Below are positions 19,154-48,604 of a stretch of DNA of 64,000 bases, one piece after another. Location of the stretch: NCBI GenBank assembly GCA_902524995.1, contig CABZFJ010000004.1, forward strand, positions 7,560-71,559, written 5' to 3'. The position numbers were made by a program, and so were the translations under genes. Each line of letters opens with the position of its first letter. Positions within the stretch are counted from its first letter, which is position 1. The notes beneath the pieces were generated by a model, which ran no database searches, was not told the DNA's origin, and saw nothing but the letters and a program-made list of their open reading frames with translations. The DNA comes from an uncultured Pelagibacteraceae bacterium. Lineage in GTDB: Bacteria; Pseudomonadota; Alphaproteobacteria; Pelagibacterales; Pelagibacteraceae.

Positions 19154-19177
19154 AAGTTCATTGCAAAGTTCATTGCA
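19154..19177. repeat. Perfect tandem 12-bp repeat AAGTTCATTGCA x2
   Basis: Read directly; lies about 30 bp inside the left islet boundary. Confidence 0.9.
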
Positions 19178-19248
19178 GAATCGCCCCAAATAGAAAGCAA
19201 ACAGAAAGATGACTTCATTGATAAGTGGGGTTACATTAAAGATATTAA

Positions 19249-19650
19249 ATGATTAACAGTGGTTATATTAATTGTATAAGAGAGATAAAAAGCAAAGATA
19301 AAATACTACAAATTCAGATTAAAATATTAAAAAAAGATATTTCTAATCTTCAAAAAGAGTTGATAAAAAGTCAAATTGATAAGTTAGAAAAAATTTATCC
19401 ACATACATTTGTAAAAGAGTTTAGGTTGTATTTAAAGTCACATGAAATTCCTTTTATAACCAAGTTACCTTTTAAAGAATTTGAGGGTTATATAGTTATG
19501 TGTTTTGACCCCAATAATAATGTAGAAAATTATTATGAAGATGGCGAGGGGGAAAAACACAAATTAACCGATGAGATACTTGATAGACAGATATATGATG
19601 GGACTTCAAAAAAGAGAGAAACAAAACCTTTGTTAAGAATTATTGAATGA
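19249..19650 (+). CDS. Hypothetical protein (islet cargo 1)
   Basis: 133-aa ORF, ATGA-coupled to the next gene; no motif recognised. Confidence 0.65.
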   Translation: MINSGYINCIREIKSKDKILQIQIKILKKDISNLQKELIKSQIDKLEKIYPHTFVKEFRLYLKSHEIPFITKLPFKEFEGYIVMCFDPNNNVENYYEDGEGEKHKLTDEILDRQIYDGTSKKRETKPLLRIIE

Positions 19651-20231
19651 ACAAAAAGATAAATCAAAAAAAATATCTAGAAGCATTAAACTTTGTGTTT
19701 AAACTTCATTCAAAACAGTTCAGAAAAGGAACTAAAATTCCCTATTTTTTTCACTTATCCGCAGTAAGCAATCATGTCATTGAAAATAGTGGAGATACTG
19801 ATGAAGCAATAGCAGGTCTTTTACATGATGCAGTAGAAGATCAAGGAGGTGAAAAAACACTTAAATTGATTAAAAAGAAATTTGGAAATAAAGTTGCAAA
19901 AATAGTTGAAGATTGCACTGATACAAAAGTAACTCCAAAACCACCATGGTTTGAAAGAAAAAAACAATACATTTTAGATTTAAGAAAAAAACCTCAATCA
20001 TCATTATTGGTTTCTATATGTGATAAAACTCATAATGCTTCATGTATTATTAATGATTATCATCGTGAAGGTAAAAAGTTATGGACTAGATTTACTGCTA
20101 ATCCTAAACAAATTTGTTGGTATTATGAAAGTCTAGGAAAGTGTTACTATAAACATCTTAAAAGTCATAAAGTTTTAAAACAAAACTTCAAAAAACTAGT
20201 TTCAGAAATGAAAAAAATTGTAAAAAAATAA
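19647..20231 (+). CDS. Stand-alone RelA/SpoT-type HD hydrolase (small alarmone hydrolase/Mesh1-like)
   Basis: H..QFRKG...PYFFH, AGLLHDAVED, CTD, DKTHN motifs. Confidence 0.85.
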   Translation: MNKKINQKKYLEALNFVFKLHSKQFRKGTKIPYFFHLSAVSNHVIENSGDTDEAIAGLLHDAVEDQGGEKTLKLIKKKFGNKVAKIVEDCTDTKVTPKPPWFERKKQYILDLRKKPQSSLLVSICDKTHNASCIINDYHREGKKLWTRFTANPKQICWYYESLGKCYYKHLKSHKVLKQNFKKLVSEMKKIVKK

Positions 20232-20594
20232 ATGAAAAAAGAAATCATTTATTATTCAAGTGGTTCAATGGGTCCTCCAATCAGTGTTGAATTGTTAGAG
20301 AACAATAAAGGTAAAATATTAGATGGTTTTGAAGAAGTGATTGATTTAGAGGATCACAAAATTTTACATTTTTGGGATAGGATGAATGAATTACAAGTTT
20401 GGAAATGGAAAAGTGAATATATTATGGAGGGAATTTTAGATGGTCATACTTGGGAACTTAAATTGAGAAATAGAGAAGGTAAAACAAGAAACTTTTATGG
20501 ACATATGAAATATCCTGATAACTACGATGAATTTATTAAAGAATTAAACAATCTTTTTGGTTCTGAAATTCAAGATGAGAAATTTGAAATATGA
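20232..20594 (+). CDS. Hypothetical acidic protein (islet cargo 3)
   Basis: 120-aa ORF abutting the HD gene; W.WK.EY...ILDGHTWEL...G...YP pattern. Confidence 0.7.
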   Translation: MKKEIIYYSSGSMGPPISVELLENNKGKILDGFEEVIDLEDHKILHFWDRMNELQVWKWKSEYIMEGILDGHTWELKLRNREGKTRNFYGHMKYPDNYDEFIKELNNLFGSEIQDEKFEI

Positions 20595-20619
20595 AGAAAG
20601 AAGTGGAACCTTAAAAAGT

Positions 20620-20653
20620 AAAAAAAACCCCCGAAACTTTCGTTCCGAGGGTT
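20620..20653 (-). terminator. Intrinsic terminator of groEL
   Basis: Minus strand AACCCTCGGAAC-GAAA-GTTTCGGGGG followed by T8. Confidence 0.88.
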
Positions 20654-20703
20654 CTAATTTTGTTTAGTGTATGTTTTTAGAGTGCTCTCTGTATGGTAAG
20701 GAA

Positions 20704-22371
<1,668 letters not shown>

Positions 22372-22378
22372 TTATTAT

Positions 22379-22672
22379 TTATTTACCGGTTGCAATACCC
22401 ATAATGTCAGACTCTTTCATTATGCTGTACTCTTTACCATCAATTTTAACTTCTGTTCCCGACCATTTACCGAATAAAACTTTATCTCCTATTTTAACGT
22501 CCATAGGTATTAGTTTTCCATCTTCAGTTTTTGCACCTCCGCCGACTGCAACAACTTTGCCTTCTTGAGGTTTTTCTTGAGCTGTATCTGGAATAATTAT
22601 GCCACCTGCAGTTTTTTCGCTGCTATCTAAAACTTCTATTAAAACACGGTCATGTAACGGTTTAAATTTCAT
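22379..22672 (-). CDS. groS: Co-chaperonin GroES
   Basis: [23 protein letters not shown]. Confidence 0.99.
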
Positions 22673-22698
22673 ACGGATTCTCCTTTAAATTAGCAGTC

Positions 22699-22727
22699 AT
22701 ATAGAGACATATTTAATAATTTTCAAG
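22699..22727 (-). promoter_or_regulatory. RpoH (sigma32) promoter of groESL
   Basis: CTTGAA-17 nt-CTATAT, same as at ibpA (both preceded by GAT). Confidence 0.8.
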
Positions 22728-22794
22728 ATCTTGTATAAAATTTATGGTCTAAAAAACTCAAGAATTAAGCTTATTTTTAAGCTATATCTCAAGT

Positions 22795-23610
22795 ATGCCT
22801 CAAAACTTAGATAAAGATGGATTAAGGACTAAAATAGATAATTACGAATTATTTTTTATCGACATTTGGGGAGTAATTCACAATGGATTACAAATTTTCG
22901 AAGATTCCATTGAGGTTCTAGAAAACTTAGAAAAAAACAATAAAGAGTTTGTATTGCTTACCAATGCACCAAGACCAAATTCAACAGTAATTGATTTTTT
23001 AAAAAAAATGGGTCTCAAAAAGTTTTATGAAAATGTATATACTTCTGGAGAAGCTTCCTTAAAATATTTGATTGAGAATTTTAATAATTCAAAATTTTAT
23101 CATATTGGACCACCAAAAGATTTTGACCTATTTAAAAGATTTGAACAAAATAAAGTAAACAATATTGGTCAAGCAGATTATTTCATATGCACAGGTTTAT
23201 TTGAAGATCATGAGAAGGAAATTAATTATTATAAAGATTTACTCGAAAAATATTCAAATAAAAAATTTGTTTGCACTAATCCAGATTTAATTATTGATAG
23301 AGGAAATGTTAGAGAATTTTGTGCAGGATCAGTTGCAAAAATATTCGAGAAAATTGGTGGAAAAGTAATTTATTTTGGAAAACCTTATCCTCCAGTATAT
23401 GAATTATCTGCAAACACTAGTGATAAAAATGTTTTATGTGTTGGAGATAATTTGAACACAGATATAAAGGGAGCTAATATTCAAAAATTTGACAATTTGT
23501 TAATAACAAGTGGTATTCATAAAGAGGAATTAAGCAGTATTAGTATTAATAGATTGGAAAAAATATATGGAGTGAGCATTAATTATACTCAGACAAAATT
23601 AAAATGGTAA
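22795..23610 (+). CDS. HAD-superfamily IIA hydrolase (TIGR01459-like)
   Basis: DIWGVIHNG, LTNAPRP, CTNPD, GKPY, VGDNLNTDIKGA. Confidence 0.9.
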   Translation: MPQNLDKDGLRTKIDNYELFFIDIWGVIHNGLQIFEDSIEVLENLEKNNKEFVLLTNAPRPNSTVIDFLKKMGLKKFYENVYTSGEASLKYLIENFNNSKFYHIGPPKDFDLFKRFEQNKVNNIGQADYFICTGLFEDHEKEINYYKDLLEKYSNKKFVCTNPDLIIDRGNVREFCAGSVAKIFEKIGGKVIYFGKPYPPVYELSANTSDKNVLCVGDNLNTDIKGANIQKFDNLLITSGIHKEELSSISINRLEKIYGVSINYTQTKLKW

Positions 23611-24530
23611 AAAAAATTAAAATTTATAAAAATTTTGAGATTTTAAAAAAACATCAAAATGCCATGATACTAATTGGAAATTTCGATGGGTTGCACCTAG
23701 GCCATCAAAGACTATTCAAAGAAGCAAAAAAATATAAAAAAAAGTATAATTCAAAAATCGGAGTGGTTACATTTGATCCAATACCAAAAATGTACTTTAA
23801 TAAAAGTATTAAAAACTATCGACTTTCGAATCTTTATCAAAAAAGCAAATATTTTAGTGACTATAATGTTGATTTTTTAATAAATAAAAAATTTGATAAA
23901 AAATTCTCAAGAATATCTTGTAATGATTTCATTAAAAATATTTTATGTAAAAAGTTAAAAGCAGATTATATCTTTGTTAGTAATAATTTTAGATTTGGTA
24001 ATAAAAGAGAGGGGGATGTCAATTTATTAAAAAGTTTTCAAAAAAAATATAATTACAAACTAATTAACCCAAAACCATTATATAAAAGAAATAAAATTAT
24101 TTCCTCAACATTAATTAGGAAATTAATTGAAAATGGTAATTTAAAAATTGCAAATCAACTTTTATCTAGAAATTGGTCTATAGAAGGTATCGTAGAAAAG
24201 GGTAGAATGATTGGAAGAAAAATTGGCTTTCCGACATGCAATATAAATATAAAAAATTATGTAATACCAAAGGTAGGAGTTTATGCAGTCGATGTTTATA
24301 TTGAAAAAAACAGAAAAAGGATTAAAGGAATAGCAAATATCGGTTATAGACCTACTTTTAATCAAAAAAAATTATTATTAGAGGTAAATTTATTTAAATT
24401 TTCTGGAAATCTTTATAATAAAAATCTAACTATTAATTTTACAAAATTTATTAGAGGAGAAACTAAATTTAAAAATATTGATGCTTTAAAAAAACAGATA
24501 AAGAAAGATATTAAAGTTGCTAAAAGATAA
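23604..24530 (+). CDS. ribF: Bifunctional riboflavin kinase/FAD synthetase
   Basis: IGNFDGLHLGHQ, ISSTLIR, IGFPTCN, NIGYRPT. Confidence 0.95.
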   Translation: MVKKIKIYKNFEILKKHQNAMILIGNFDGLHLGHQRLFKEAKKYKKKYNSKIGVVTFDPIPKMYFNKSIKNYRLSNLYQKSKYFSDYNVDFLINKKFDKKFSRISCNDFIKNILCKKLKADYIFVSNNFRFGNKREGDVNLLKSFQKKYNYKLINPKPLYKRNKIISSTLIRKLIENGNLKIANQLLSRNWSIEGIVEKGRMIGRKIGFPTCNINIKNYVIPKVGVYAVDVYIEKNRKRIKGIANIGYRPTFNQKKLLLEVNLFKFSGNLYNKNLTINFTKFIRGETKFKNIDALKKQIKKDIKVAKR

Positions 24531-24536
24531 AATGAC

Positions 24537-27281
24537 ATGAGTAAAGAACATATTAATTTACCTAAAACAAAATTTTCAATGAAGGCAAATTTGCCAAACA
24601 AGGAGCCAAATTATATTGAATTTTGGAAGAAAATTGACCTATACAATTTGTTGAGACAAAAAAGTAAAGGGCAAGAAAAATTTGTACTCCATGATGGGCC
24701 TCCATATGCCAATGGCAATATTCACATGGGTACCGCTTTGAATAAAATTTTAAAAGACATAATTACGAAATTTCATCAAATGGATGGCAAGGACTCAGTT
24801 TATGTTCCTGGATGGGATTGCCATGGGTTACCTATTGAGTGGAAAATTGAGGAACAATACAAAAAGAACAAAAAAAACAAAAATGATGTTCCAATAATTG
24901 AATTCAGAAAAGAATGTAGGGAGTTTGCAAACAAATGGATAGACGTTCATAAGGGAGAATTTACAAGACTTGGAGTAATTGGAGATTGGGAAAATTACTA
25001 TTCAACAATGTCATTTGATGCTGAAGCTCAAATAGTTAGAGAACTCGGAAAATTTCTTAAAGAAGGAAGCCTTTATAGAGGTTATAAGCCGGTTCTTTGG
25101 TCAACTGTTGAAAAAACAGCTTTAGCTGATGCTGAGGTTGAATACATGGATCATGTTTCAGATACGATTTATGGAGCTTTCAAAGTGAAAATTTCAAATT
25201 TAGATATAATTAAAGGTGCAGATGTAATAATTTGGACTACGACTCCGTGGACTATTCCTGCAAATAAAGCATTAGCTTACAATGCTGGCCTAAAATATAT
25301 TTTGCTTGAAATAAACGATAACAAAAATTTTGTTGATAGAAAAATAGTAATTGCAAAAGACCTTTTAGAACCTTTTAAAAAAGATACTTCTATAGAAAAT
25401 ATTAAAGTACTAAATGAATTTTTAGGAAAAGATTTAAAAGGAACAATTTGCAGTCATCCATTTTCTAAAATGGGATATGAATATGATATTCCAATGCTTG
25501 AGGCTAATTTTGTTACTACTGAGCAAGGTACAGGTATTGTACACTGCGCTCCTAGCCACGGACCCGATGATTTCAATCTTTGTTTAAATAACAATATCAA
25601 AGCAGTTGAAACAGTTGATGGTGATGGAAAATATACAAATGAAATTAAATTTTTTGAGGGTTTACATATTTTTAAGGCCAATAATTTGATTATTCAAAAA
25701 TTAGATGAACAAAAAAATTTGGTAACAAATGGAAAACTTACTCATTCTTATCCCCATTCTTGGAGATCAAAAGCTCCATTAGTTCATAGAGCAACTCCAC
25801 AATGGTTTATTTCTATGGAAAGCCATGGACTAAGAGATAAAGCATTAAAAGCCATCGATAATACAGATTTTTATCCTTCTAAAGGAAAAGAAAGAATAAA
25901 ATCAATGATTGAAACTAGACCTGATTGGTGTGTATCAAGACAGAGAGTTTGGGGTGTGCCGCTACCAATTTTTATTTCAAAAAAAACAGGTGATGTTTTA
26001 GTTGATGATGAGGTTTTTGAAAATATTGCAAAAATTTACGAGAAAGAAGGTTCTGATTGTTGGTTTAACGAAGATTATCAGATCTTTCTTGGAGATAAGT
26101 ATAAAGCAGAAGATTATGAAAAATTATCAGATATTGTTGAAGTTTGGTTTGATAGTGGATCAACCCATTCTTTTGTTTTAGAAAAAAGAGATGATCTTAA
26201 ATGGCCGGCATCTATGTATCTAGAGGGTTCAGATCAACATAGAGGATGGTTTCACTCTTCATTACTTGAGTCTTGTGGGACAAGAGGCGTCGCCCCATTT
26301 GAAAGCATTCTTTCTCATGGTTTTGTTGTAGATGGAAAAGGTCTAAAAATGTCAAAATCAACGGGGAATGTTATTGCGCCACAGGATATATTAAAAAAAT
26401 ATGGAGCGGATATTTTAAGAATTTGGGTTGCATCTTCAAACTATGCTGAAGATCTTAGAATTGACTATTCAATTTTAGATCAACATGCTGAATCTTATAG
26501 AAAAATTAGAAACACGTTTAGATATCTTTTAGGGAATATTCAAGATCAATATGAAAATCTTGATTTTGAAAAAGTTAAGTTTGAAAACTTTGATTCACTT
26601 GAAAAATTTATGCTTCATAGAATTTATATAATAAATGAGAATTTTAAAAATAATTTTAAAATTTATAACTTTCACAACTTATATAAAGAATTACTAAATT
26701 TTTGCACAGTAGAGCTTTCTGCCTTTTATTTTGATATCAGGAAAGATACTTTATATTGTGAAGCTTTAAATTCTGACAAAAGAAAGAACTGTATAACTCT
26801 TTTAAATATTATTTTACAATGTCTCCTTAAATGGTTTGCACCAATATTGTCATTTACAACTGAAGAAATTTATCAATTAGTTAAAAAAGAAAAAGATAGC
26901 CAAAGTATACATTTACAAAATTTTATTTCTGTTCCAAATTCTTGGAATAATGAAGAGCTTAGCTCAGATTGGGATTATGTTAAAAAAATTAGAGATGAGG
27001 CAAATATTTCAATTGAGAATATGAGAGCTGAAAAGTCAATTGGCTCAAGTTTAGAGGCAACGATTGAAATAAAGTTAAATAAAGAATTTTATGATAAGGC
27101 AAAAAATATTAATTTTTCTGAAATTTGTATCACTTCATTTGCCTCTGTAATTGAAGATAAAAATTTAAAAAAAAGTATTGATGTAGTTGCAAAAAAAGCT
27201 CAAGGAACGAAATGTCCTGTATGTTGGAAAATTTTTGAAGAAGATTGTGAAAGGCACGGACATCTTAATTTAAATGGGTAA
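24537..27281 (+). CDS. ileS: Isoleucine--tRNA ligase
   Basis: LHDGPPYANGNIHMG, WTTTPWT, KMSKS, C-terminal CPVCW. Confidence 0.98.
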   Translation: MSKEHINLPKTKFSMKANLPNKEPNYIEFWKKIDLYNLLRQKSKGQEKFVLHDGPPYANGNIHMGTALNKILKDIITKFHQMDGKDSVYVPGWDCHGLPIEWKIEEQYKKNKKNKNDVPIIEFRKECREFANKWIDVHKGEFTRLGVIGDWENYYSTMSFDAEAQIVRELGKFLKEGSLYRGYKPVLWSTVEKTALADAEVEYMDHVSDTIYGAFKVKISNLDIIKGADVIIWTTTPWTIPANKALAYNAGLKYILLEINDNKNFVDRKIVIAKDLLEPFKKDTSIENIKVLNEFLGKDLKGTICSHPFSKMGYEYDIPMLEANFVTTEQGTGIVHCAPSHGPDDFNLCLNNNIKAVETVDGDGKYTNEIKFFEGLHIFKANNLIIQKLDEQKNLVTNGKLTHSYPHSWRSKAPLVHRATPQWFISMESHGLRDKALKAIDNTDFYPSKGKERIKSMIETRPDWCVSRQRVWGVPLPIFISKKTGDVLVDDEVFENIAKIYEKEGSDCWFNEDYQIFLGDKYKAEDYEKLSDIVEVWFDSGSTHSFVLEKRDDLKWPASMYLEGSDQHRGWFHSSLLESCGTRGVAPFESILSHGFVVDGKGLKMSKSTGNVIAPQDILKKYGADILRIWVASSNYAEDLRIDYSILDQHAESYRKIRNTFRYLLGNIQDQYENLDFEKVKFENFDSLEKFMLHRIYIINENFKNNFKIYNFHNLYKELLNFCTVELSAFYFDIRKDTLYCEALNSDKRKNCITLLNIILQCLLKWFAPILSFTTEEIYQLVKKEKDSQSIHLQNFISVPNSWNNEELSSDWDYVKKIRDEANISIENMRAEKSIGSSLEATIEIKLNKEFYDKAKNINFSEICITSFASVIEDKNLKKSIDVVAKKAQGTKCPVCWKIFEEDCERHGHLNLNG

Positions 27282-27771
27282 TGAAAAACTAAATAAACTT
27301 ATTATTGGTTTTATATTTTTATTTATTTGCTTTGCAATAGATAGATTTTCAAAAATCTATATTTTAAATATTTTAAATAATTATGGACAGGTAGATTTGT
27401 ATGTTAATCAGTACTTAAATATTTATTTGATATGGAACACAGGAATAGGATTTGGGCTGTTTTCATCAGAAAATAACACAACATATAACGTAATAACATT
27501 AATCATCGTCTTAATAAATTTTCTTATCTTATATTATGCTTTCGTTGAAACTCGAATTAAATCTATTTTTTTAATGATTATTTTAGGAGGATCTTTAGGC
27601 AACTTGTTTGATAGAATATATTATAAAGCAGTTCCAGATTTTATAGATTTGAATTATGCAGGATATCATTGGTTTATTTTTAATGTAGCAGATATATTTA
27701 TTACTTTAGGTATTATATGCCTTATTTTAAGTGAATTTATATTTTATAAAAAGAGTAATGTTAAAAAGTAA
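27274..27771 (+). CDS. lspA: Lipoprotein signal peptidase II
   Basis: WNTGIGFG, GNLFDR, VPDFI, FNVADI. Confidence 0.95.
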   Translation: MGNEKLNKLIIGFIFLFICFAIDRFSKIYILNILNNYGQVDLYVNQYLNIYLIWNTGIGFGLFSSENNTTYNVITLIIVLINFLILYYAFVETRIKSIFLMIILGGSLGNLFDRIYYKAVPDFIDLNYAGYHWFIFNVADIFITLGIICLILSEFIFYKKSNVKK

Positions 27772-28072
27772 ATTAAAATTAATTGTAATATTATTAATTT
27801 TACCGACAATAACATATTGTGGATCTGCTAAAGATGCTTTGGTGGGAAAAAAAAGATCTGAACAAAGTGATGAATTCCTTGTTAAGAAAAAAAACCCTCT
27901 TCAGATGCCTCCAGAAATGAATAAGCTTCCAAAACCAGGTGATGATGTAGAGACACAAAACCAAATAAAAAATAATGAAATTAAAGAAATTCTTAAAGTG
28001 GGTGAAAATAACAATGATAGCTCTAGTAATGAGTCTGATTTATTAAAAAATATGAAAAAGAAAATCCAATAA
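27758..28072 (+). CDS. DUF3035-like lipoprotein
   Basis: Signal ending in Cys (ITYC), DEFLVKKKNPLQMPP; position after lspA; start moved to ATG 27758. Confidence 0.75.
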   Translation: MLKSKLKLIVILLILPTITYCGSAKDALVGKKRSEQSDEFLVKKKNPLQMPPEMNKLPKPGDDVETQNQIKNNEIKEILKVGENNNDSSSNESDLLKNMKKKIQ

Positions 28073-28075
28073 TTA

Positions 28076-31068: not shown

Positions 31069-31090
31069 TTAGTAAATATATATCTTAAAT

Positions 31091-31288
31091 ATGTTAAATA
31101 AGTTAGCTAAATTAAAATACTTAGCAAACAATTTTGAGATCATTGAAGATGGTGATCATGTGATTTGTGCTATCTCACAAAAAAAAATACCTCTTGAAAA
31201 ATTAACTTATTGGAATGTTGAAGAACAAGAAGCCTACTTTTCATATGTTGAGGCCTCAATTAAAAGAGATTTATTAAATAAAAACTGA
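31091..31288 (+). CDS. DUF2093-family small protein
   Basis: GDHVICAIS..KIPL..L.YWNVE.QEAY pattern. Confidence 0.8.
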   Translation: MLNKLAKLKYLANNFEIIEDGDHVICAISQKKIPLEKLTYWNVEEQEAYFSYVEASIKRDLLNKN

Positions 31289-36909: not shown

Positions 36910-36958
36910 AATTTACTTGTAAATAACAAAGCGTAGATTCATAATCAAACTGATTCGT

Positions 36959-38327: not shown

Positions 38328-38329
38328 AT

Positions 38330-39175: not shown

Positions 39176-39186
39176 ATAGGATATAT

Positions 39187-39849
39187 CTAAATTAAATCAA
39201 GCAATTCTGATAAATTACTTATTTGTTTTTTAGGTTCAAAATCTAATTTATCAAAAATATTATTATTTCTATTAACCCAAACAGCGTTGTATCCATAATT
39301 CCCTGCGCCAGATACATCCCATGTATTTGCACTTAAGAATAAAACTTCGTTCTTTTCAATATTATATTTATTTATTGGAAGGTCGTAAACTTTTGAATCT
39401 GGTTTAAAAATACCAACTTCTTCTACAGAAAAAATATCATCAAAAATATCTTTTAATTGATTACTAACTACAAGTTCATTTAAAAGGTCAGGTGTACCAT
39501 TTGATAGAATTGCTAATTTATAACTTGATTGTTTTAATTTCTTTAGTGCATCCTTTACTTCTGTAAATGGTGAAAGCACTTTATATAAATTTAATAGTTC
39601 AGATCTCATTGAATTATCAATATTGTAAAAATTCATCGATTTATCCAAACTATCTTCAGTGATTTGCCAAAAATCCTTATGTCTTCTCATTAAACTTCTA
39701 AGCCAAGTATATTCAAGCTGTGTAGTTCTCCAATAATTGGCAAATCCTTCCCATCTATCACCCAATCTTTCTTTACATTTTTCGGCAGCAGAATTAATAT
39801 CAAATAGAGTTCCATATGCATCAAATATGATTGCTTTAATATTTTTCAT
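39187..39849 (-). CDS. Haloacid dehalogenase type II
   Basis: FDAYGTLFD, WRTTQLEYTW, LSNG, FKPD, SANTWD. Confidence 0.92.
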   Translation of the reverse strand: MKNIKAIIFDAYGTLFDINSAAEKCKERLGDRWEGFANYWRTTQLEYTWLRSLMRRHKDFWQITEDSLDKSMNFYNIDNSMRSELLNLYKVLSPFTEVKDALKKLKQSSYKLAILSNGTPDLLNELVVSNQLKDIFDDIFSVEEVGIFKPDSKVYDLPINKYNIEKNEVLFLSANTWDVSGAGNYGYNAVWVNRNNNIFDKLDFEPKKQISNLSELLDLI

Positions 39850-39866
39850 AAATTAATTTAATTATA

Positions 39867-40565
39867 ATGAGTAATATTAGAATATTTTATCCAGAAAAAT
39901 TATCAATTAATTTAGAGACTAATTTAACTAAGTCTCAATCACATTATTTATTTAAAGTAATGAGGATTAAACAAGGAGAAACCTTTTCCGTTTTTAATAA
40001 ATCTGGAGAATGGAAGTCAATTGTAACTGAAATTTCAAAAAGTATCTTACATTTCAAGGTTATTGAACAATTGAGACAAAAAGATAAAGAGCAAGAAATT
40101 TGGTTAGCTTTCTCACCCATTAAATCAAATTATTTTAACTTCATGATACAAAAAGCAACTGAGCTTGGAGTAACAAAATTTGTTCCAATTATTTCTGAAA
40201 GGACAATTGTTAGAAAAGTAAATAATGAGAGATTTAATAAAATAATTATAGAGTCGTGTGAACAAAGTAATAGAATAAATATTCCTTCAATTGAAAAATC
40301 TCAATCATTAGATAAATTCCTGTCTAACAATTCGGATATCAATTTAATTTTTGGAGATTTAAATACGAATAATAAAAAAATTAAAATTTCTAATTCAAAA
40401 CCAAATTGTCTTTTAATTGGTCCGGAAGGCGATTATTCAGAGGGTGAAATTAAAAAGATTCTAAGTTTTAAAGGGTCTCAATCGATAAAACTAAGCGATA
40501 ACATTTTAAGGTCTGAAACTGCAGTTATATCCGCATTATCTGTTATCAATTATTTGCAAAATTGA
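39867..40565 (+). CDS. rsmE: 16S rRNA m3U1498 methyltransferase
   Basis: KVMR, QKATELGV, EQS, IGPEGD, ILRSETA. Confidence 0.94.
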   Translation: MSNIRIFYPEKLSINLETNLTKSQSHYLFKVMRIKQGETFSVFNKSGEWKSIVTEISKSILHFKVIEQLRQKDKEQEIWLAFSPIKSNYFNFMIQKATELGVTKFVPIISERTIVRKVNNERFNKIIIESCEQSNRINIPSIEKSQSLDKFLSNNSDINLIFGDLNTNNKKIKISNSKPNCLLIGPEGDYSEGEIKKILSFKGSQSIKLSDNILRSETAVISALSVINYLQN

Positions 40566-40623
40566 TAAATTGTCGCGAATTCTCTAGTATTTTTTTGATA
40601 TTTTCGATTTATATATAAATCAA

Positions 40624-43073
<2,450 letters not shown>

Positions 43074-43099
43074 TAACTTCTTAAGATATAAAAATTAAA

Positions 43100-44008
43100 A
43101 TGGCTACGACGTATACTAAAGTAAAAAAATCATACTACGAACTAGGTGTAATTCCTGAATTATTAAAGTTAATGAAGCCAAGAGTAATGTCTCTTGTTAT
43201 TTTCACTTGTGCAGTTGGTCTCTTAACAGCCCCTACATCAGTTTCATTTCAACAATCAGTAATTGGAATATTAATTGTAGCCTTTGGTGCTGGAGCAGCG
43301 GGGGCTCTTAACATGTGGTATGAAGCTGATTTAGATAAATTAATGTCTAGAACATGCCTACGTCCAATTCCAAGAGGAAAGCTGAATAGAAACCACGCAT
43401 TATATTTTGGAACATCCCTCTCAGTTATTTCTGTTATAAGCTTATACTTTGTTACAAATGCCCTATCGGCATTTCTATTATTGTTTACGATATTATTTTA
43501 CGTATTTATTTATACAATTTGGTTAAAAAGAAAAACTCCACAAAATATCGTTATCGGTGGAGCATCAGGAGCTTTACCACCAGTAATTGGATGGGCAATA
43601 GCAACAAATTCAATTTCGTTGGAGTCAATTACTTTTTTTTTAATAATTTTCTTTTGGACACCTTCGCACTTTTGGGCATTAAGCTTGTACAAAGCTGACG
43701 ATTATAAAAAAGCAGGTATTCCAATGCTTCCTGTAACTAATGGAATTCAGGACACAAAAAAGAATATTCTAATTTACTCTTTGCTAATGATACCTACTAT
43801 TATATTTCCATATTATATCGGATTTGTAAGTGAAGTATTCTTATCACTCAGTTTACTACTTACATTTTATTATAACTTAATTTGTTATCAGCTTTACAAT
43901 TATAAAGTTGGAAAATTTAACATAAAAAAAGCTAGACATATTTTTAGCTATTCAATTATTTACTTATTTTTAATATTTGTTTTTTTCTTAGTAGATAAAA
44001 TTATATGA
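43100..44008 (+). CDS. ctaB: Heme o synthase (protoheme IX farnesyltransferase)
   Basis: LMKPRVMSL, MSRT..RP, LKRKTPQNIVIGG, WTPSHFWAL. Confidence 0.95.
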   Translation: MATTYTKVKKSYYELGVIPELLKLMKPRVMSLVIFTCAVGLLTAPTSVSFQQSVIGILIVAFGAGAAGALNMWYEADLDKLMSRTCLRPIPRGKLNRNHALYFGTSLSVISVISLYFVTNALSAFLLLFTILFYVFIYTIWLKRKTPQNIVIGGASGALPPVIGWAIATNSISLESITFFLIIFFWTPSHFWALSLYKADDYKKAGIPMLPVTNGIQDTKKNILIYSLLMIPTIIFPYYIGFVSEVFLSLSLLLTFYYNLICYQLYNYKVGKFNIKKARHIFSYSIIYLFLIFVFFLVDKII

Positions 44009-44130
44009 TAATTAAAGATCAGAAATTAAAAAAGAAAAACTTATGGACAGCTGTTGGTTTAGTTGCATTTATACTTTTCTTATTCGTTTTCACACTATTT
44101 AATATCGGAGTATTTGAAAGAGCTTTATGA
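44005..44130 (+). CDS. Small single-TM protein (CoxF-like), 41 aa, not in the ORF track
   Basis: MIIKDQKLKKKNLWTAVGLVAFILFLFVFTLFNIGVFERAL; ATGA overlaps at both ends. Confidence 0.8.
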   Translation: MIIKDQKLKKKNLWTAVGLVAFILFLFVFTLFNIGVFERAL

Positions 44131-44675
44131 TTAAAAAAAATACTTTAACTCCACTAATTCTAGCAGGAATTTTTGTCTTTATGTTGGGATTATCTTTTGC
44201 AGCTGTGCCTTTGTATGATTTATTTTGTAGAGTTACAGGCTTTGGTGGAACTACACAAATATCGAAAGAGGCTCCTAATATTGTTTTAGATAAAAAAATA
44301 AATGTAAGATTGGATACCAACGTTAACAGTGCTCTTGATTGGAATTTTGATGTTGATCAAAAAACAATGGATGTACAGCCCGGCAAGGTATACAGAATTA
44401 AATTTGAAGTGGAGAATACAGGAGATGAGATTTCATCTGCAGTAGCTACATATAATGTTTCTCCATCATCGTTTGGAGCATATTTTAATAAATTAGGTTG
44501 TTTTTGCTTTGAAAAACAAACATTGAGTCCAGGGGAAAAAGCAAGTTACACATTAGTATTTTACCTAGATCCAGAATTAGTAAATGATCCTAAAACATCT
44601 AGAGTTGAAGATGTAACTATGTCATATACTTTTTTCTCATCTGCATATTATAAAAACGAAAAAAAAGAGAGTTAA
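44127..44675 (+). CDS. ctaG: Cytochrome c oxidase Cu chaperone CtaG/Cox11
   Basis: VPLYDLFCRVTGFGG, CFCFEKQ. Confidence 0.96.
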   Translation: MIKKNTLTPLILAGIFVFMLGLSFAAVPLYDLFCRVTGFGGTTQISKEAPNIVLDKKINVRLDTNVNSALDWNFDVDQKTMDVQPGKVYRIKFEVENTGDEISSAVATYNVSPSSFGAYFNKLGCFCFEKQTLSPGEKASYTLVFYLDPELVNDPKTSRVEDVTMSYTFFSSAYYKNEKKES

Positions 44676-44680
44676 AATAA

Positions 44681-45472
44681 ATGTCTACATCAGGTCAAAA
44701 ACACGATTACCATTTAGTTGACCCTAGTCCTTGGCCTTTAGCTACATCTATAGCAACATTAGTTACAGCTTTTGGATCTGTTTATTATTTCCACAGTAAA
44801 GTCATGTGGGCGATGGTTTTAGGTTTTTTACTTATAATTTATTGTGCCTTTATGTGGTTCAGAGATGTTGTAATTGAAGCTGAGCATAAAGGTCATCACA
44901 CACCTGTTGTTCAAATTCATCACAGATATGGAATGACTTTATTTATTGCTTCTGAAGTAATGTTTTTTGTTGCATGGTTTTGGGCATACTTTGATGCAAG
45001 TTTGTTTCCAAATGAATTCATGGGAAATGTATGGCCACCGAAAGATATTGAAACTTTTGATCCATGGGATATCCCACTTATAAATACTCTTGTCTTACTT
45101 TTATCTGGTACAACAGTAACCTGGGCACACCATTCTTTGTTAGAGGACGACCGAAAAGGATTTATAAATGGTCTAATCTGTACGGTAATTTTAGGAGCAT
45201 TCTTTACTTTATTGCAAATATACGAATACCAACACGCTACATTTAGTTTTTCAGGTCACATTTATGGTGCTACATTCTATATGGCCACAGGGTTTCATGG
45301 CTTCCATGTATTAGTTGGGACTATTTTTTTAGCGGTTTGCTTATGGAGAGGTAAGTTAGGACACTTCACTAAAGAGCATCACTTTGGTTTCGAAGCTGCT
45401 GCTTGGTACTGGCACTTTGTTGACGTTGTCTGGCTATTTTTATTCGCAGCTATTTACATTTGGGGAAGTTAA
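44681..45472 (+). CDS. coxC: Cytochrome c oxidase subunit III
   Basis: HLVDPSPWP, FIASEVMFF, TGFHGFHV, WYWHFVDVVW. Confidence 0.97.
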   Translation: MSTSGQKHDYHLVDPSPWPLATSIATLVTAFGSVYYFHSKVMWAMVLGFLLIIYCAFMWFRDVVIEAEHKGHHTPVVQIHHRYGMTLFIASEVMFFVAWFWAYFDASLFPNEFMGNVWPPKDIETFDPWDIPLINTLVLLLSGTTVTWAHHSLLEDDRKGFINGLICTVILGAFFTLLQIYEYQHATFSFSGHIYGATFYMATGFHGFHVLVGTIFLAVCLWRGKLGHFTKEHHFGFEAAAWYWHFVDVVWLFLFAAIYIWGS

Positions 45473-45478
45473 TAGTTC

Positions 45479-46132
45479 TTGAAAAATAAGTTATCTTTTT
45501 CAATCTTTGTATACTTTTTTATTTTAGTTTTTTTATCATTAGGCACTTGGCAAATTGTAAGATTAAATTGGAAGCTTGAATTAATAAATTCAATTGACCA
45601 ATCCTTAAAAAGTGACCCAGCAGGATTTAATGGAAGTAATCCAATTAACTTTAAAAAGATCAAATTTGAAGGAATATTAGATAATTCAAAAATAATTTAT
45701 TTATACTCCTTAAATGAAAATGGAGAACCAGGATTTGATATTGTAAATCCAGTAAGCATTAACAATAAAAGCTATTTAATAAATCGAGGCTGGGTTCCAA
45801 GAGATTTTAAATCTAAAAAGTATGTTTCAAATGACAGTGAATTTGAGGGAGTTTTAAAATTAAAAAGCAAATTTAATTATTTCAAACCAGATAATGACGT
45901 CAATAATAATTATTGGTTCACTCTTAAAGATGAAGATTTATTGACCTATACAGGCAAAGAATTTTCTCCGTTCATTATCAACAATATTAGCAAGCAGGAA
46001 GGAATTTATCCTCAGTCAAAAAAAATAGGAGCCAATATTTCAAACAACCACTTAAAGTATGCTCTTACATGGTTTTCATTAGCTGTTTCCATTTTTTTAA
46101 TATATTTATATTTTAGAAAAAAAAATTACTAA
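45479..46132 (+). CDS. SURF1-family protein
   Basis: LGTWQIVRL.WK, INRGWVP, NNHLKYALTWF; TTG start. Confidence 0.92.
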   Translation: MKNKLSFSIFVYFFILVFLSLGTWQIVRLNWKLELINSIDQSLKSDPAGFNGSNPINFKKIKFEGILDNSKIIYLYSLNENGEPGFDIVNPVSINNKSYLINRGWVPRDFKSKKYVSNDSEFEGVLKLKSKFNYFKPDNDVNNNYWFTLKDEDLLTYTGKEFSPFIINNISKQEGIYPQSKKIGANISNNHLKYALTWFSLAVSIFLIYLYFRKKNY

Positions 46133-47505
46133 TGGAATATATAAGCACTAGAAATAATTCAGATCATTTTTCATTTAAAAAAATATTTTTGAAAGGTTTA
46201 GCTGATGATGGAGGTCTTTTTGTACCAAAGTTGATCAAACCATTTAGTAAAGATGAATTAAACAAACTAAGTAGTCTTAATTACAATGAATTAGCAGCTG
46301 AAATAATTTTCCCGTTTATTGGTGATTTTATGACTAAAAAAGAGTTAATTTCTACTATATCAAAATCTTACTCAAATTTTAGAGCAGAGGATGTTGTAAA
46401 AATTTCTGATTTAGGAGATTTAAAAGTATTAGAACTTTATCATGGCCCAACACTTGCATTTAAAGATATTGCAATGCAATTGATAGGAAATTTTTATCAA
46501 TACCATTTAGGAAAAGAGCAAGAAAAAATTAATATTATTGTAGCAACTTCAGGAGATACAGGTGCAGCAGCTATTGATGCTTTAAAAGGGAAAGAGAATT
46601 TAAACGTTTTTGTATTACATCCAAACAATAGAATTTCACCAGTGCAAAGACGACTTATGACAATACATGAAGAGAAAAATGTATTTAATATTGCTATCGA
46701 GGGGAACTTTGATGACTGTCAAAATCTAGTTAAAGCCATGTTTAACGATGAAAAATTTTCTAGCTCAATAAATATGTCAGGTGTTAATTCAATTAATTGG
46801 GCAAGAATTGTTGTTCAAGCTGTTTATTATTTTTACACTTATTTTAAAATAGGAAATGGACAGCCTCTGTCTTTTTCTGTTCCGACTGGAAATTTTGGAG
46901 ATATTTATGCTGGTTATTTAGCAAAAAAACTTGGTCTTCCAATTGATAAACTTATTGTAGCTACTAATAAAAATGACATCCTTCATAGAGCAATTTCTGG
47001 TGGGGATTATACTCAAAAGAAAGTTGAGGAAACAAATACCCCTAGCATGGATATCCAGATAGCAAGTAATTTTGAGAGACTTTTATATGACATTAAAGAC
47101 TGTAATTCAGATGTTACGAAAGATGTGATGAGTAAAATAAAAAATAATACTTATAAAATTGATAATAGTGACTTAGATGAAATAAAAAAGAATTTTACAT
47201 CTGAAATGTTAGATGAAAAAGAAACTATTCAAATGATAAAAGATATTAATAAAGAATATAAAGTTGTAGTTGATCCACATACTGCAGTTGGAATAGGTGC
47301 TGCAAAAAAACTTGGGTTAGAGCAAAATTGTGTTGTTTTATCTACAGCACACCCATGTAAGTTTCCAAAAGCAATAGAAGATGCAATCTCAAAAACTGAA
47401 GAATTACCAGATAGTCTTAAATATGTTTATAATAGAGAAGAAAAATTTGAAGTTATATCAAATGATATAAATAAAGTTAAAGATTATGTAATTAATTCCA
47501 TATGA
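46132..47505 (+). CDS. thrC: Threonine synthase
   Basis: YISTR, GLADDGGL, HGPTLAFKD, ATSGDTG, NSINWAR. Confidence 0.96.
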   Translation: MEYISTRNNSDHFSFKKIFLKGLADDGGLFVPKLIKPFSKDELNKLSSLNYNELAAEIIFPFIGDFMTKKELISTISKSYSNFRAEDVVKISDLGDLKVLELYHGPTLAFKDIAMQLIGNFYQYHLGKEQEKINIIVATSGDTGAAAIDALKGKENLNVFVLHPNNRISPVQRRLMTIHEEKNVFNIAIEGNFDDCQNLVKAMFNDEKFSSSINMSGVNSINWARIVVQAVYYFYTYFKIGNGQPLSFSVPTGNFGDIYAGYLAKKLGLPIDKLIVATNKNDILHRAISGGDYTQKKVEETNTPSMDIQIASNFERLLYDIKDCNSDVTKDVMSKIKNNTYKIDNSDLDEIKKNFTSEMLDEKETIQMIKDINKEYKVVVDPHTAVGIGAAKKLGLEQNCVVLSTAHPCKFPKAIEDAISKTEELPDSLKYVYNREEKFEVISNDINKVKDYVINSI

Positions 47506-47987
47506 AATTAAAAATAAAAGATCAAATCCCTGATATAGAAATTTTTCATATATTAGATGGTGAACCACAAACTAGCAAAATTAGAGATATTTTAGGAAAT
47601 GGTAAAGTTATTTTATTTGGATTACCTGGCGCCTTTACCTCAACTTGTTCAAAACTCCATCTTCCTGGATATGTTGCTAATGCCGATAAAATAAAATCTA
47701 AAGGAATAGATAATATATTTTGTTTATCTGTTAACGATCCTTTTGTTATGAATGCATGGGGAGAAGCAAATAATGCTGGAGGCAAAATTACAATGTTATC
47801 AGATCCTTATCTATTATTTACAAAAGCAATTGGAGCAGAAGTAGATAGAAATTCAAAAGGAATGGGTATTCGTTCAAATCGTTATGCGATGGTTATTCAA
47901 AACTTAGAAGTAGTTAATGTTAAAGTTGAGAAAGAGACTAAACAATGCGGTTTATCTTCAGCAGAGGGTATTTTAGATTTATTATAA
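47502..47987 (+). CDS. Peroxiredoxin (Prx5 type)
   Basis: GLPGAFTSTCS..HLPG, SVNDPFVMNAW, RSNRYAM. Confidence 0.93.
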   Translation: MKLKIKDQIPDIEIFHILDGEPQTSKIRDILGNGKVILFGLPGAFTSTCSKLHLPGYVANADKIKSKGIDNIFCLSVNDPFVMNAWGEANNAGGKITMLSDPYLLFTKAIGAEVDRNSKGMGIRSNRYAMVIQNLEVVNVKVEKETKQCGLSSAEGILDLL

Positions 47988-48051
47988 TTAGTATGGCAGT
48001 TCTGTTGTCCGTTCCAATTCAACTTATAACAGAATATAAAACTTTTTGAAT

Positions 48052-48075
48052 AGGTACATAGCAGGGTACATAGTT
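48052..48075. repeat. Tandem 12-bp repeat AGGTACATAGCA/GGGTACATAGTT
   Basis: GGTACATAG at 48053 and 48065. Confidence 0.85.
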
Positions 48076-48137
48076 AAACTATGATTTCTTTGTGACTACT
48101 TTGTAATTGAGGTTTTTTTCTGATATGTAATTCTTAA

Positions 48138-48560
48138 GTGAAATTAAATTGGATTATTTTTGTAACTGGATGGATGTCATTCAGAGCAGTTGGGTCAGGT
48201 TTGTTTTTGTTTTGGATCTTTACTGAAAATGAGCGTTCGGCACCATCCGAATGGATAGTTCCTTTTGTGGGCGACTTTTTTATTGGGATAACTGCTTTAT
48301 TTTTAGTTTACCACATTATAAAAAAACCAAGCACTATACTATGGGGTCTTTTGCTGTCTTGGAATGTGATTGGTTTGTTAGATTTAATCGGGGCAATAAA
48401 TGTAAGTTTTGCTGCTCCTTATGGACCTATACCAGAAATAGGATTTAATGAATTGGCAGTAAGATCTATTTTAATTTTAAATACTTTATTACAGATTTCT
48501 TGTATTTACCTATTGTTTCAAAAAGACATAAAAGAATATTTTAAAAAAAGTAAATTTTGA
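48138..48560 (+). CDS. Hypothetical 4-TM membrane protein (islet cargo)
   Basis: 140-aa GTG-start ORF; W..PFVGD..IG.TA and WN.IG..D pattern. Confidence 0.75.
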   Translation: MKLNWIIFVTGWMSFRAVGSGLFLFWIFTENERSAPSEWIVPFVGDFFIGITALFLVYHIIKKPSTILWGLLLSWNVIGLLDLIGAINVSFAAPYGPIPEIGFNELAVRSILILNTLLQISCIYLLFQKDIKEYFKKSKF

Positions 48561-48573
48561 GTTTTGAAGGTAT

Positions 48574-48604
48574 GGTACATAGTCAGTATATATTAGGTAC
48601 AGTC
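48574..48604. repeat. Three GGTACATAG-like units at 11-bp spacing
   Basis: GGTACATAG (48574), AGTATATAT (48585), GGTACAGTC (48596). Confidence 0.65.

Follow-up and report, generated by a model that had tools for sequence, protein, structure and literature searches.

Two short accessory islets lie in the 64,000-nucleotide stretch of SAR11 (Pelagibacteraceae) DNA analysed here, which we call the window. Islet 1 separates typA from groEL, and islet 2 separates a peroxiredoxin gene (prx) from rnhA. A related tandem 12-bp motif at both places raises the question of whether they are one kind of mobile element. The original prediction was that they are small cassettes mobilised in trans, or decayed remnants of one element family. 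Our analysis agrees: with a probability of about 0.8, both islets are integrase-less offshoots of a single family of SAR11 site-specific integrative elements.

Anatomy of the two islets

The motifs were found where they had been placed, AAGTTCATTGCA twice at 19154-19177 and the islet 2 pair, spelled in full AGGTACATAGCA-GGGTACATAGTT, at 48052-48075. Their units match at 9 of 12 positions, with a 12-bp period and a common orientation, as described. Islet 1 and its flanks comprise the following features.

17195-19010, minus strand: typA/bipA, left core gene (Pfam GTP_EFTU and BipA_C)
19051-19086, no strand: displaced original groEL terminator, beside typA since the insertion (direct repeat with 20613-20652)
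19108-19126, no strand: attL, the displaced remains of a groEL 3' end (84% direct repeat with 20700-20718)
19154-19177, plus strand: post-core arm-type repeats, AAGTTCATTGCA twice with period 12, beginning 36 bp past the core
19212-19219, plus strand: probable third, distal arm site CTTCATTG (repeat family D3)
19249-20594, plus strand: cargo of three genes (133-aa unknown, 194-aa and 120-aa products)
20613-20711, no strand: attR, an element-supplied terminator (20613-20652) followed by the true groEL 3' end
20704-22359, minus strand: groEL, the target gene, coding sequence intact (Pfam Cpn60_TCP1)

The islet is flanked by a diverged 85-105-bp repeat of terminator plus groEL 3' end, and the common crossover core TTACATTC lies at 19112-19119 in attL and at 20704-20711 in attR. 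The displaced terminator is a CCCCCG hairpin between an A-run and a T-run; its counterpart in G012 directly adjoins the groEL stop. On the typA side, the ATG at 19010 reads as the likely start. The same attL remnant (TTACATTC, then G/A-CA) was found in G004, G011, G009, G120, G186, G151, G196 and G271, and the position of the tandem pair is repeated in nine other cassettes with different cargo. About 34 bp past the pair, the distal CTTCATTG site is conserved in the modules of G009, G151, G192 and G011, and it parallels the ssrA-type modules, where a third GGTACATAG lies 37 bp past the pair. The three-repeat arm expected ahead of the attR terminator is missing from islet 1; G004, G186, G196 and G359 retain three repeats. 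The 194-aa cargo protein has an HD_4/RelA-SpoT-type hydrolase domain, and the 120-aa protein weakly matches DUF6438. This cargo is absent from the same spacer in the relatives searched, which hold other cargo or none.

Islet 2 is arranged in the same way around a different core.

47502-47987, plus strand: peroxiredoxin gene, left flank (Pfam Redoxin)
47993-48013, no strand: attL, made up of a left half resembling ssrA, the core TTCTGTTG at 48000-48007, and TCCGTT as a right half of attP type
48052-48075, plus strand: post-core arm-type repeats, GGTACATAG twice with period 12, about 48 bp past the core word
48138-48560, plus strand: cargo encoding a predicted membrane protein of 140 aa that matches no family
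48573-48605, plus strand: pre-core arm, three sites with period 11 (aligned to G008 and G021, where all three repeats are intact)
48653-48676, no strand: attR, the tmRNA 3'-end copy GGGTCGTTTTGTTGCCAGGTGCAC (3 mismatches against the genome's own ssrA end)
48677-49102, minus strand: rnhA, right flank (Pfam RNase_H)

The core here resembles the final 25 bases of the tmRNA gene, and crossover falls at about TTCTGTTG. The ssrA end was set by ARAGORN and Rfam alpha_tmRNA; the Rfam model matches L260 at 7236-7534, with the core at its end. We delimited attL by aligning it with G020 and G023, where the site is empty, with G008, where it is filled, and with the attP form. Those empty sites consist of the left half of the islet 2 attL and the right half of its attR, which directly adjoins the rnhA stop codon. 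A third GGTACATAG copy, missed by the original prediction, lies at 48574, to the right of the cargo gene. Of the pre-core sites, the first alone is intact; the second has become AGTATATAT and the third GGTACAGTC, 2 bp having been lost. Naive prx-rnhA sites (G003 and G004) contain no ssrA-like sequence whatever, and simple attP x attB recombination does not explain the first arrival of the cassette there.

Both islets are bounded by attL- and attR-like core copies. Their left boundaries had also been paired with each other. The 15-mers do match at 11 of 15 positions, but those positions are not equivalent: TAGTACGCC... at 19127 is on the element side of the crossover and TAGTATGGCAG... at 47989 on the outer side. 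Their likeness is best treated as coincidence.

Repeats, cores and cargo across genomes

Judged inside the window alone, the better-than-chance case for the repeats is weak. There are 8 RGTWCATWG matches where 3.2 would be expected, a count that 3 of 100 shuffles also reach, and the window contains about 90 short tandem repeats. These figures would suit two unrelated local tandem duplications that are alike by chance, as would the fact that a 9/12 match of two 12-mers, in any register, is not rare in AT-rich DNA. Indeed, as sequences, the two window motifs could owe part of their likeness to chance, because other family members have unrelated repeat words.

The decisive test of non-randomness was the cross-genome count, a scan that the original prediction had proposed. 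GTWCATWG-N3-4-GTWCATWG gave 40 matches, in 25 of the 301 genomes of the genus, and the reversed control pattern gave none in all 301. Among the 36 distinct tandem sites, 33 keep a set spacing to a recombination core: 47-49 bp after or 49-61 bp before the ssrA-type core, and 36 bp after TTACATTC (47 in one genome). The other three comprise two within apparent coding sequence and one truncated module. The composite repeat-plus-core pattern was found in 18 of 185,579 species genomes, all Pelagibacteraceae. Furthermore, the position and copy number of each repeat are conserved in many other genomes, an intermediate word, GTACATTG, occurs three times at a groEL-type core, and CTTCATTG arms are found at both core types. 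Chance resemblance is contradicted by the 301-genome counts, the fixed core distances and the pairing of arms across cargo described below, and we give it practically no weight.

In a complete cassette, a pair of repeats follows one core and a set of three precedes the next. The same modules enclose different cargo, both at groEL-type sites (the window, G004 with an FkbM-like methyltransferase, G011, G009, G151, G186 and G196) and at ssrA-type sites (L053, L056, L071 and L072). Across the cargo, the repeat class matched in 12 two-armed units and mismatched in none; across the core, both cores with arms on both sides were mismatched. The three-repeat arm comes after the stop codon of the cargo, and its spacing to the next core is constant despite unrelated intervening spacers.

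The 140-aa cassette was found at no fewer than five chromosomal sites (ssrA, rnhA, pnp and at least two other contexts). It is 94-98% identical between genomes, with flanks only about 80-82% identical, and its protein is 98% identical in G008 and G021. These contexts are otherwise unrelated, the core being the sole shared sequence. In G024 the 140-aa cargo lies between trxB and an epimerase gene, without modules.

These observations bear on ordinary homologous recombination, in which conserved inter-cassette spacers would mediate the swapping and the repeats would be regulatory (operator/promoter or terminator region). Papers on SAR11 prefer to explain exchange at recurrent sites by homologous replacement and mention almost no mobile elements. 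At 85-105 bp the duplicated terminator-plus-groEL segment is long, and it has diverged. The two-repeat arm, upstream of the cargo start, occupies a possible operator position. A conserved spacer, however, predicts matching across the shared core and mismatching across the cargo, the reverse of what was seen. The fixed placement of the three-repeat arm past the cargo stop, one cassette in contexts with the core alone in common, junctions exact to the 7-8-bp core and a joined site directly adjoining an integrase gene (below) also argue against it, and we regard this explanation as unlikely.

Not every cassette is of this kind. Among core-to-core units in ssrA arrays, 15 of 38 have no recognisable repeats, and in G194 and G287 other, Pfam-positive integrases pair this ssrA core with different arms; therefore not all cassettes belong to this family.

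A divergent integrase family

The joined attP form (three repeats, core, two repeats) was found on metagenome contigs L438 and L440, where it directly adjoins a gene for a 411-aa protein. This protein (family P0001) has no Pfam match, and its family is missed by both Pfam and NCBIfam. Against Pfam-positive SAR11 integrases, hhalign gave 96.2% (E 2.7e-9); R235, K270, R345 and Y377 are invariant, and all top matches in fold comparison were tyrosine recombinases. Profile and fold comparison together identify it as a tyrosine recombinase. The two contigs, from different samples, overlap at both ends, which points to an apparent circular form of about 7.2 kb.

Relatives in G192, G359 and G256 all lie between typA and groEL, flanked by their own two-plus-three repeats with the words CTTCATTG, ACATTGCAAAG and TTCCTCAC. 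These groEL-type proteins are 41-54% identical among themselves and 28-32% identical to the ssrA type (P0001), and the two types are related by sequence. The 401 genomes searched contained three full-length copies and two fragments. No integrase of any kind was found in the window's genome (82% complete).

The repeat word varies with the integrase variant in the four pairs seen. This bears on operators of a host transcription factor, used at core promoters too, which had been named as a way to overturn the prediction. Direct repeats spaced 11-12 bp apart are typical of winged-helix response regulators. Against this stand the covariation with the integrase, the 33 of 36 sites in cassette modules and the window's genome itself, where there are 48 single motif matches and tandem pairs at the two islets only. 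An operator role is highly improbable.

A further alternative is that another, unlinked recombinase (host XerC/XerD or a pelagiphage integrase) moves the cassettes, with the P0001-family protein a passenger. Most genomes do encode one Xer-like tyrosine recombinase of about 310-325 aa, Pfam-positive integrases target the same ssrA core, and tRNA genes are targets of known pelagiphage integrases. Yet the repeat arms immediately adjoin P0001-family genes in four independent elements covering both targets, the arms differ in sequence in ssrA elements whose integrase is Pfam-positive, and viral contigs showed neither the repeat-plus-core pattern nor P0001 relatives among the matches listed. We consider this alternative quite unlikely.

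Proposed mechanism and known systems

In the integrative-element model that we favour, a complete element carries a lambda-like attachment site. Its short crossover core lies between weak inverted half-sites; three tandem repeats of 11-bp period precede the core by about 50-100 bp, and two of 12-bp period, together with a distal copy, follow it at about 36-48 bp. Integration would cut this site in two, so that the two-repeat and three-repeat arms come to lie at opposite ends of the cargo. The groEL lineage would recombine at the last groEL bases and bring its own terminator; its sister lineage would use the final 25 bases of ssrA, the tmRNA gene, or copies elsewhere. Arrays would be cassettes stacked through repeated integration. 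The enzyme would be a divergent tyrosine recombinase of about 400-410 aa, confined to rare full-length elements and the apparent circle, whose N-terminal beta-sheet domain resembles the one that binds arm sites in lambda Int. Given such an element, integrase-less cassettes, including both islets, could be moved in trans or in cis.

The tandem units had been likened to arm-type sites near a crossover core. The two-plus-three repeats do flank either the cargo or, in attP, the core, and we infer that the integrase N-domain binds them. The family may well still recombine today; the two copies in the window's genome are probably fixed relics: islet 1 has lost its three-repeat arm, and in islet 2 the core is mutated and only one of three sites has escaped decay. 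Cassettes without a recombinase of their own, together with full elements in relatives, suggest how streamlined SAR11 bacteria swap single genes. To call this an undescribed system was an overstatement: the integrase was previously unannotated, but tyrosine-integrase islands with integrase-less, att-flanked derivatives are already a known kind.

The attachment sites of lambda, mycobacteriophage L5 and HP1 have a core with arm-type direct repeats on both arms. The SAR11 elements resemble lambda-type systems in the 7-8-bp core with weak inverted half-sites, in clusters of two and three direct repeats about one helical turn apart, placed on either arm some tens of bp from the core, in an integrase with an additional N-terminal beta-sheet domain, and in filled, empty and joined site forms. 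They differ in that most copies are tiny (from 0.15 kb up to a few kb, with one to three genes) and lack an integrase, that the integrase family escapes Pfam and NCBIfam, and that one lineage targets the groEL 3' end and carries a replacement terminator.

Like integron arrays and CALINs, the SAR11 arrays are one-orientation series of promoter-proximal single-gene cassettes, each bounded by a recombination site and often without a recombinase in the array. Their sites are a host gene-end copy plus arm repeats rather than attC-type imperfect palindromes, and there is no IntI or attI platform.

Prochlorococcus tycheposons (10.1101/2020.12.28.424599) likewise inhabit a streamlined marine host once thought to lack mobile elements. 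They are tyrosine-recombinase elements at tRNA/tmRNA genes, older ones are pushed inward by successive integrations, and degenerate remnants and partial target copies are scattered through the islands. That preprint mentions neither arm-type repeats nor SAR11; the host clade differs, and single-gene integrase-less cassettes dominate in SAR11.

The ssrA-specific genomic islands of Dehalococcoides include integrase-less, cis-mobilizable members (McMurdie 2011, PMC3146451). There too, tandem arrays stand behind ssrA, an ssrA 3'-end copy closes each unit, and about half of the units lack an integration module and were read as cis-mobilizable and stacked by accretion. Those islands are 10-30 kb long and use a large serine recombinase (DsiB), whereas the SAR11 family has a tyrosine recombinase, often single-gene units, class-specific arm repeats and a second target, groEL.

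Two inserts bordered by copies of host gene ends

Two inserts in the window, islet 1 between typA and groEL and islet 2 between prx and rnhA, are each bordered by two copies of a short core sequence. The original prediction had noted a related tandem repeat in each, and we found both repeats, at 19154-19177 and 48052-48075. Below, G-numbers denote genomes of the genus, L-numbers extracted loci or contigs, and C-numbers contigs within a genome; arms are the tandem repeats beside a core.

Features of the two islets (positions in the window)
Islet 1, flanks: typA, minus strand, start at about 19010; groEL, minus strand, 20704-22359
Islet 1, left flank copy: 19044-19126, ending in a groEL remnant, TTACATTC then GCATTCC
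Islet 1, right flank copy: 20613-20718, ending in the real groEL stop codon, TTACATTC then CCATGCC
Islet 1, arm repeats: 19154-19177, AAGTTCATTGCA twice, read from the sequence
Islet 1, cargo: three plus-strand genes, encoding an unknown protein, a protein with an HD_4 / RelA-SpoT-type hydrolase domain and a protein that matches DUF6438 weakly
Islet 2, flanks, convergent: prx, 47502-47987; rnhA, 48677-49102
Islet 2, arm repeats: 48052-48075, AGGTACATAGCA-GGGTACATAGTT, read from the sequence
Islet 2, further repeat: 48574, a third GGTACATAG copy on the far side of the cargo gene
Islet 2, cargo: one 140-aa membrane-protein gene without family match

On either side islet 1 has one copy of a diverged 85-105-bp direct repeat, in which an A-run/CCCCCG hairpin terminator precedes the last groEL codons. 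Because the 8-bp TTACATTC is common to both copies (inside 19108-19126 and 20700-20718), we placed the exchange point there. In this layout groEL receives a new terminator from the element, the old one staying beside typA. In G012 a terminator of the left-copy type directly adjoins groEL, and typical empty typA/groEL sites are found in G013, G014, G016 and G003. Islet 1 retains attL and two repeats, and 19212-19219 is probably a third site; the three-repeat arm ahead of its right-hand terminator is absent. A small ORF (MTSL...) in the left module of groEL-type sites looked at first like a leader peptide and is better read as the third arm site. The HD_4 / RelA-SpoT cargo gene (19647-20231) encodes a stand-alone protein of 194 aa that resembles a small alarmone hydrolase.

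In islet 2 the shared core appears as TTCTGTTG / TTTTGTTG at 48000 and 48659. The left end in the window and in G008 reads TAGGGCAGT-TCTGTTG-TCCG... and the right end GGGGCGT-TCTGTTG-CCAGGTG, and in two relatives, G020 and G023, the prx-rnhA spacer consists only of TAGGGCAG(T/C)TCTGTTGCCAGGTG. Joining the left half of attL to the right half of attR thus reproduces the unoccupied site, which places the exchange within TTCTGTTG. The right-hand sequence corresponds to the last 25 bases of the tmRNA gene, and the inserted block takes in 13 bp of ssrA beyond the core. The host ssrA, on contig C3, ends in GGGGCGTTCTGTTGCCAGGTGCCCC, and a full-length Rfam alpha_tmRNA match (L260, 7236-7534) ends in the core sequence; tRNA and Rfam scans of the window found nothing. 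Since a tRNA-Leu gene follows immediately, the host's own ssrA site is empty.

The unoccupied sites of G020 (L017) and G023 (L019) keep 25-30 bp of ssrA-like sequence, and the spacers of the more distant G003 (L021) and G004 (L023) have none at all. From their sequences, the G020 and G023 sites therefore resemble scars with a single att, as an excised cassette would leave. In islet 2 itself, two of the three right-hand arm sites have decayed, and over the 20 bases compared its attR core region has 3 mismatches to the ssrA end. Both islets are probably fixed relics in this strain.

Tandem arms, cassette arrays and movement

Enrichment of the motif over a shuffled background, proposed as a check of the original prediction, was weak within the window, where RGTWCATWG occurs 8 times against 3.2 expected, a count reached by 3 of 100 shuffles, and where Tandem Repeats Finder reports about 90 short tandem arrays. 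The decisive comparison was across genomes: GTWCATWG-N3-4-GTWCATWG gave 40 matches in 25 of 301 genomes of the genus, and a reversed control pattern gave 0 in all 301. The 1.12-Mb host assembly holds 48 single matches, and its only tandem pairs are those of the two islets. Furthermore, 33 of the 36 distinct tandem sites in the 301 genomes lie at a fixed distance from a core; of the three exceptions, two are in apparent coding sequence and one is a truncated module.

Offset classes of the tandem arms
ssrA-type core, arm following: 47-49 bp
ssrA-type core, arm preceding: 49-61 bp
TTACATTC, arm following: 36 bp; 47 bp in one genome
TTACATTC, arm preceding: 74-85 bp

A composite repeat-plus-core pattern matched 18 times among 185,579 species genomes, always in Pelagibacteraceae. 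If the repeats were operators of a host transcription factor, they should recur at core-gene promoters. We found no such recurrence; the 33 sites lie in cassette modules and the host genome has just two tandem sites, which argues against operators.

In complete units one core is followed by two repeats of period 12, and the next is preceded by three of period 11; by sequence, these units appear to carry arm-type direct repeats on both arms at fixed offsets, with repeat classes matched across the cargo. Such units contain the 140-aa cassette in G008, G021, G090, G043, G288 and others, and at groEL they also carry other cargo, for example an FkbM-like methyltransferase gene (G004, G186). In addition, units are stacked. 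Arrays at groEL occur in G011 (two units), G151 (three) and G192, and G196 preserves the junction of two stacked cassettes as three repeats, 17 bp, a terminator, a TTACATTC remnant and two repeats. Behind ssrA, arrays reach up to eight cores (examples in G189, G234, G141 and G101), and the modules after the core vary among GGTACATAG, ACTTCATTGCAA and ACTTCGTTGAAA. The groEL-type module (…CTCACTTATTTAAG, repeats, GAATC) has visible homology with the variants CTTCATTG/CTTCGTTG, and an arm of three GTACATTG at a groEL-type core is intermediate in word between the two window motifs. Integrase-less, att-flanked units are found stacked with integrase-bearing relatives. One locus (L432, 4868-5028) holds a cargo-less 149-bp unit of core, three GGTACATAG repeats and core, which may have arisen by deletion or may represent a minimal insertion of att alone.

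How these units spread can be read from their repeat classes. Where core-to-core units had recognisable arms at either end, the class agreed in 12 and was mixed in 0; most of the 12 are copies of one cassette, leaving about six or seven independent cases, groEL-type included. Only two cores have arms on both sides, and in both the class differs between the sides. Homologous exchange through a conserved spacer predicts the reverse of this class matching. Integration of circles carrying a repeats-core-repeats site predicts matching across the cargo, and the sequences fit such integration. Judged likewise, the empty, filled and joined site forms appear to be interrelated by exchange at the core.

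The 140-aa cassette also occurs in different places. Between the window, G008 and G021 its gene is 98% and its modules 86-95% identical, and the flanking prx and rnhA genes show 80-82% identity. Its excised circle is predicted to measure 661 bp. In G021 the cassette sits between fabI and pnp, and across 18 genomes it is found beside ssrA, rnhA and pnp and in at least two further contexts. In G024 (C1; L020, 1503-1916) the gene, at 93% nucleotide identity, is packed tightly between trxB and an NAD-epimerase gene without att modules; this copy may be a source locus or fully domesticated. The fabI/pnp spacer, whose length among relatives runs from about 6 bp to 2.5 kb, is a further hotspot of variation. 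The host's own fabI/pnp islet (G000:C1:128998-129969), with a membrane protein gene and a rhodanese-like gene named from sequence reading, has neither repeats nor core and was set aside as a family member.

A candidate integrase family and its two target types

Neither islet contains an integrase and none was found in the host genome, which is 82% complete; full-length integrase-bearing relatives lie in G192, G359 and G256 and on a metagenome contig, L438. This contig came from a metagenome scan for the joined form, with repeats on both sides of one core, which found four contigs. On two of them, L438 and L440, the site reads three repeats, GGGGCGTTCTGTTGTCCGTCCC, two repeats, with element genes on both sides, and it aligns as the left part of the window attR followed by the right part of attL. 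The two contigs, from different samples, overlap each other at either end, pointing to a possible circle of about 7.2 kb. Directly adjoining the two-repeat arm is a gene for a 411-aa protein, P0001.

Searches of Pfam, NCBIfam, PHROG and PDB sequences gave no match for P0001, which stayed below the Pfam PF00589 gathering threshold. We compared its family profile with Pfam-positive SAR11 integrases, and hhalign gave 96.2% probability (E 2.7e-9, 246 columns). Of the R-K-H-R-H/W-Y catalytic set, R235, K270, R345 and Y377 are invariant in the family, and an equally invariant Tyr342 replaces the first His. A structure prediction (pLDDT 83) had tyrosine recombinases as top Foldseek matches at E <= 0.001 (Tn1549 Int, XerH, XerA, Cre and IntI), with a weaker match to lambda Int (E 2.9e-3, over 394 columns). 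On the profile comparison, the invariant residues and the predicted structure together, we assign P0001 to the tyrosine recombinases. Its residues 1-65 are modelled as a four-stranded sheet plus a helix, a predicted domain that resembles the arm-binding domain of lambda Int. The family comprises 44 sequence clusters, all unnamed or 'hypothetical', and the few with a source name are from Pelagibacterales.

The putative circle also encodes a 232-aa serine recombinase (L440:553-1251, plus strand; Pfam Resolvase, PHROG integrase/invertase) away from the att site, which might resolve multimers. Beside the integrase lies a weakly conserved small basic protein, both in the ssrA type (L438:2439-3113, minus strand) and in a groEL-type element (L449:9423-9860, plus strand); a single comparison gave 31% over 58 aa (E 9e-5), and the protein could be a directionality factor or a regulator.

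Relatives of P0001 were found in 5 of 401 genomes of the genus.

Relatives of P0001 in genomes of the genus
G086: fragment, 74% identical to P0001, within an ssrA array
G297: fragment, 42% identical, on a short contig
G192, G359 and G256: full-length genes, all between typA and groEL
G256, repeat word: TTCCTCAC twice after a TTACATTC core, three times before terminator and groEL
G359, repeat word: ACATTGCAAAG twice and three times, with CATTGCAAAG in common with the window's repeat
G192, repeat word: CTTCATTG twice, abutting the integrase gene, in a three-cassette array

Among themselves the three groEL-type integrases share 41-54% identity, and with P0001 they share 28-32%. These identities, and a shared site plan with separate repeat words, indicate two sister lineages of one integrase family. 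By their locations, one lineage would be specific for the groEL 3' end and the other for that of ssrA, with arm words particular to each. Related recombinases serving the two islets had been part of the original prediction, and its reading of small cassettes mobilised in trans, or of decayed remnants, is supported overall.

Other integrases were weighed as sources of the arrays. Most genomes of the genus have a single Xer-like tyrosine recombinase and nothing else of that kind. Pfam-positive integrases beside arrays were set aside, as the search gave mostly this Xer-like gene, with phage-type integrases at tRNA genes. Two Pfam-positive integrases do lie at ssrA (G194, G287), with other arm sequences. 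They belong to a separate 6.2-kb element (L389, G194:C3:36000-49000, at 1150-7350; also L394, G287:C19) with a 343-aa Pfam-positive integrase, 28-bp direct repeats of the ssrA end, a 733-aa protein guessed from size alone to be a primase, and arms of TTGCTTAAC twice. These arms differ from the repeat family, and the SAR11 ssrA core is therefore shared by two or more integrase families. Another locus (L080, G008:C7, 860-2030) has a 341-aa Pfam-positive integrase beside what by eye looks like a partial tRNA 3' end, where ARAGORN detected no tRNA. This locus is a tRNA-site element of the usual kind and has no relation to the repeats. XerCD/dif-like modules and IS200/IS605-type hairpin ends were dropped, the sites being, by eye, unlike them. 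Searching viral contigs with the two repeat patterns and with the core gave, among the matches listed, only chance matches in high-GC or unrelated contigs; the joined form was not found in viral contigs, nor a P0001-family protein in viral sequences.

Gene flux in SAR11 and known systems

SAR11 is the ocean's most abundant bacterial group. Most of its flexible genes occur singly or in small cassettes, at sites that recur. Recent pangenome papers find hardly any mobile-element functions and describe both the origin of single-gene variable loci and the mechanism as unresolved; known pelagiphage integrases target tRNA genes. A further-reaching reading is that a family of arm-binding tyrosine integrases, invisible to Pfam, has gone unrecognised in SAR11, and that mini-cassettes bearing its att sites, whether at ssrA, the groEL 3' end or transplanted ssrA-end copies between convergent genes, are a main route for single genes or small gene sets in and out of these streamlined genomes. 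We hold this tentatively, at a probability of about 0.4. If true, it would supply the missing mechanism. The results themselves offer a searchable site grammar of core plus class-specific repeat arms, a candidate enzyme family missed by standard annotation, and two target types, one of them the 3' end of a protein gene (groEL). With a concrete mechanism and enzyme on offer, the question of SAR11 gene flux becomes directly testable, and P0001-family integrases might serve as site-specific tools in genetically intractable organisms. A limited literature search found no paper on these arms, the groEL target or this integrase family, which does not prove absence.

The general kind of system is familiar: islands with a tyrosine integrase at tRNA or tmRNA genes, arms of the lambda type, and att-flanked (cis-mobilizable) members that lack an integrase and stack by accretion. 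Integrons use attC-type sites and an IntI/attI platform, whereas here we see copies of host gene ends with direct repeats, in arrays abutting ssrA or groEL with no IntI-type gene beside them. The ssrA islands of Dehalococcoides follow the same scheme with a serine recombinase (PMC3146451); that enzyme is a large serine recombinase of the DsiB type, whereas the gene beside the att site here encodes a tyrosine recombinase. The tycheposons of Prochlorococcus are an ecological analogue (10.1101/2020.12.28.424599).
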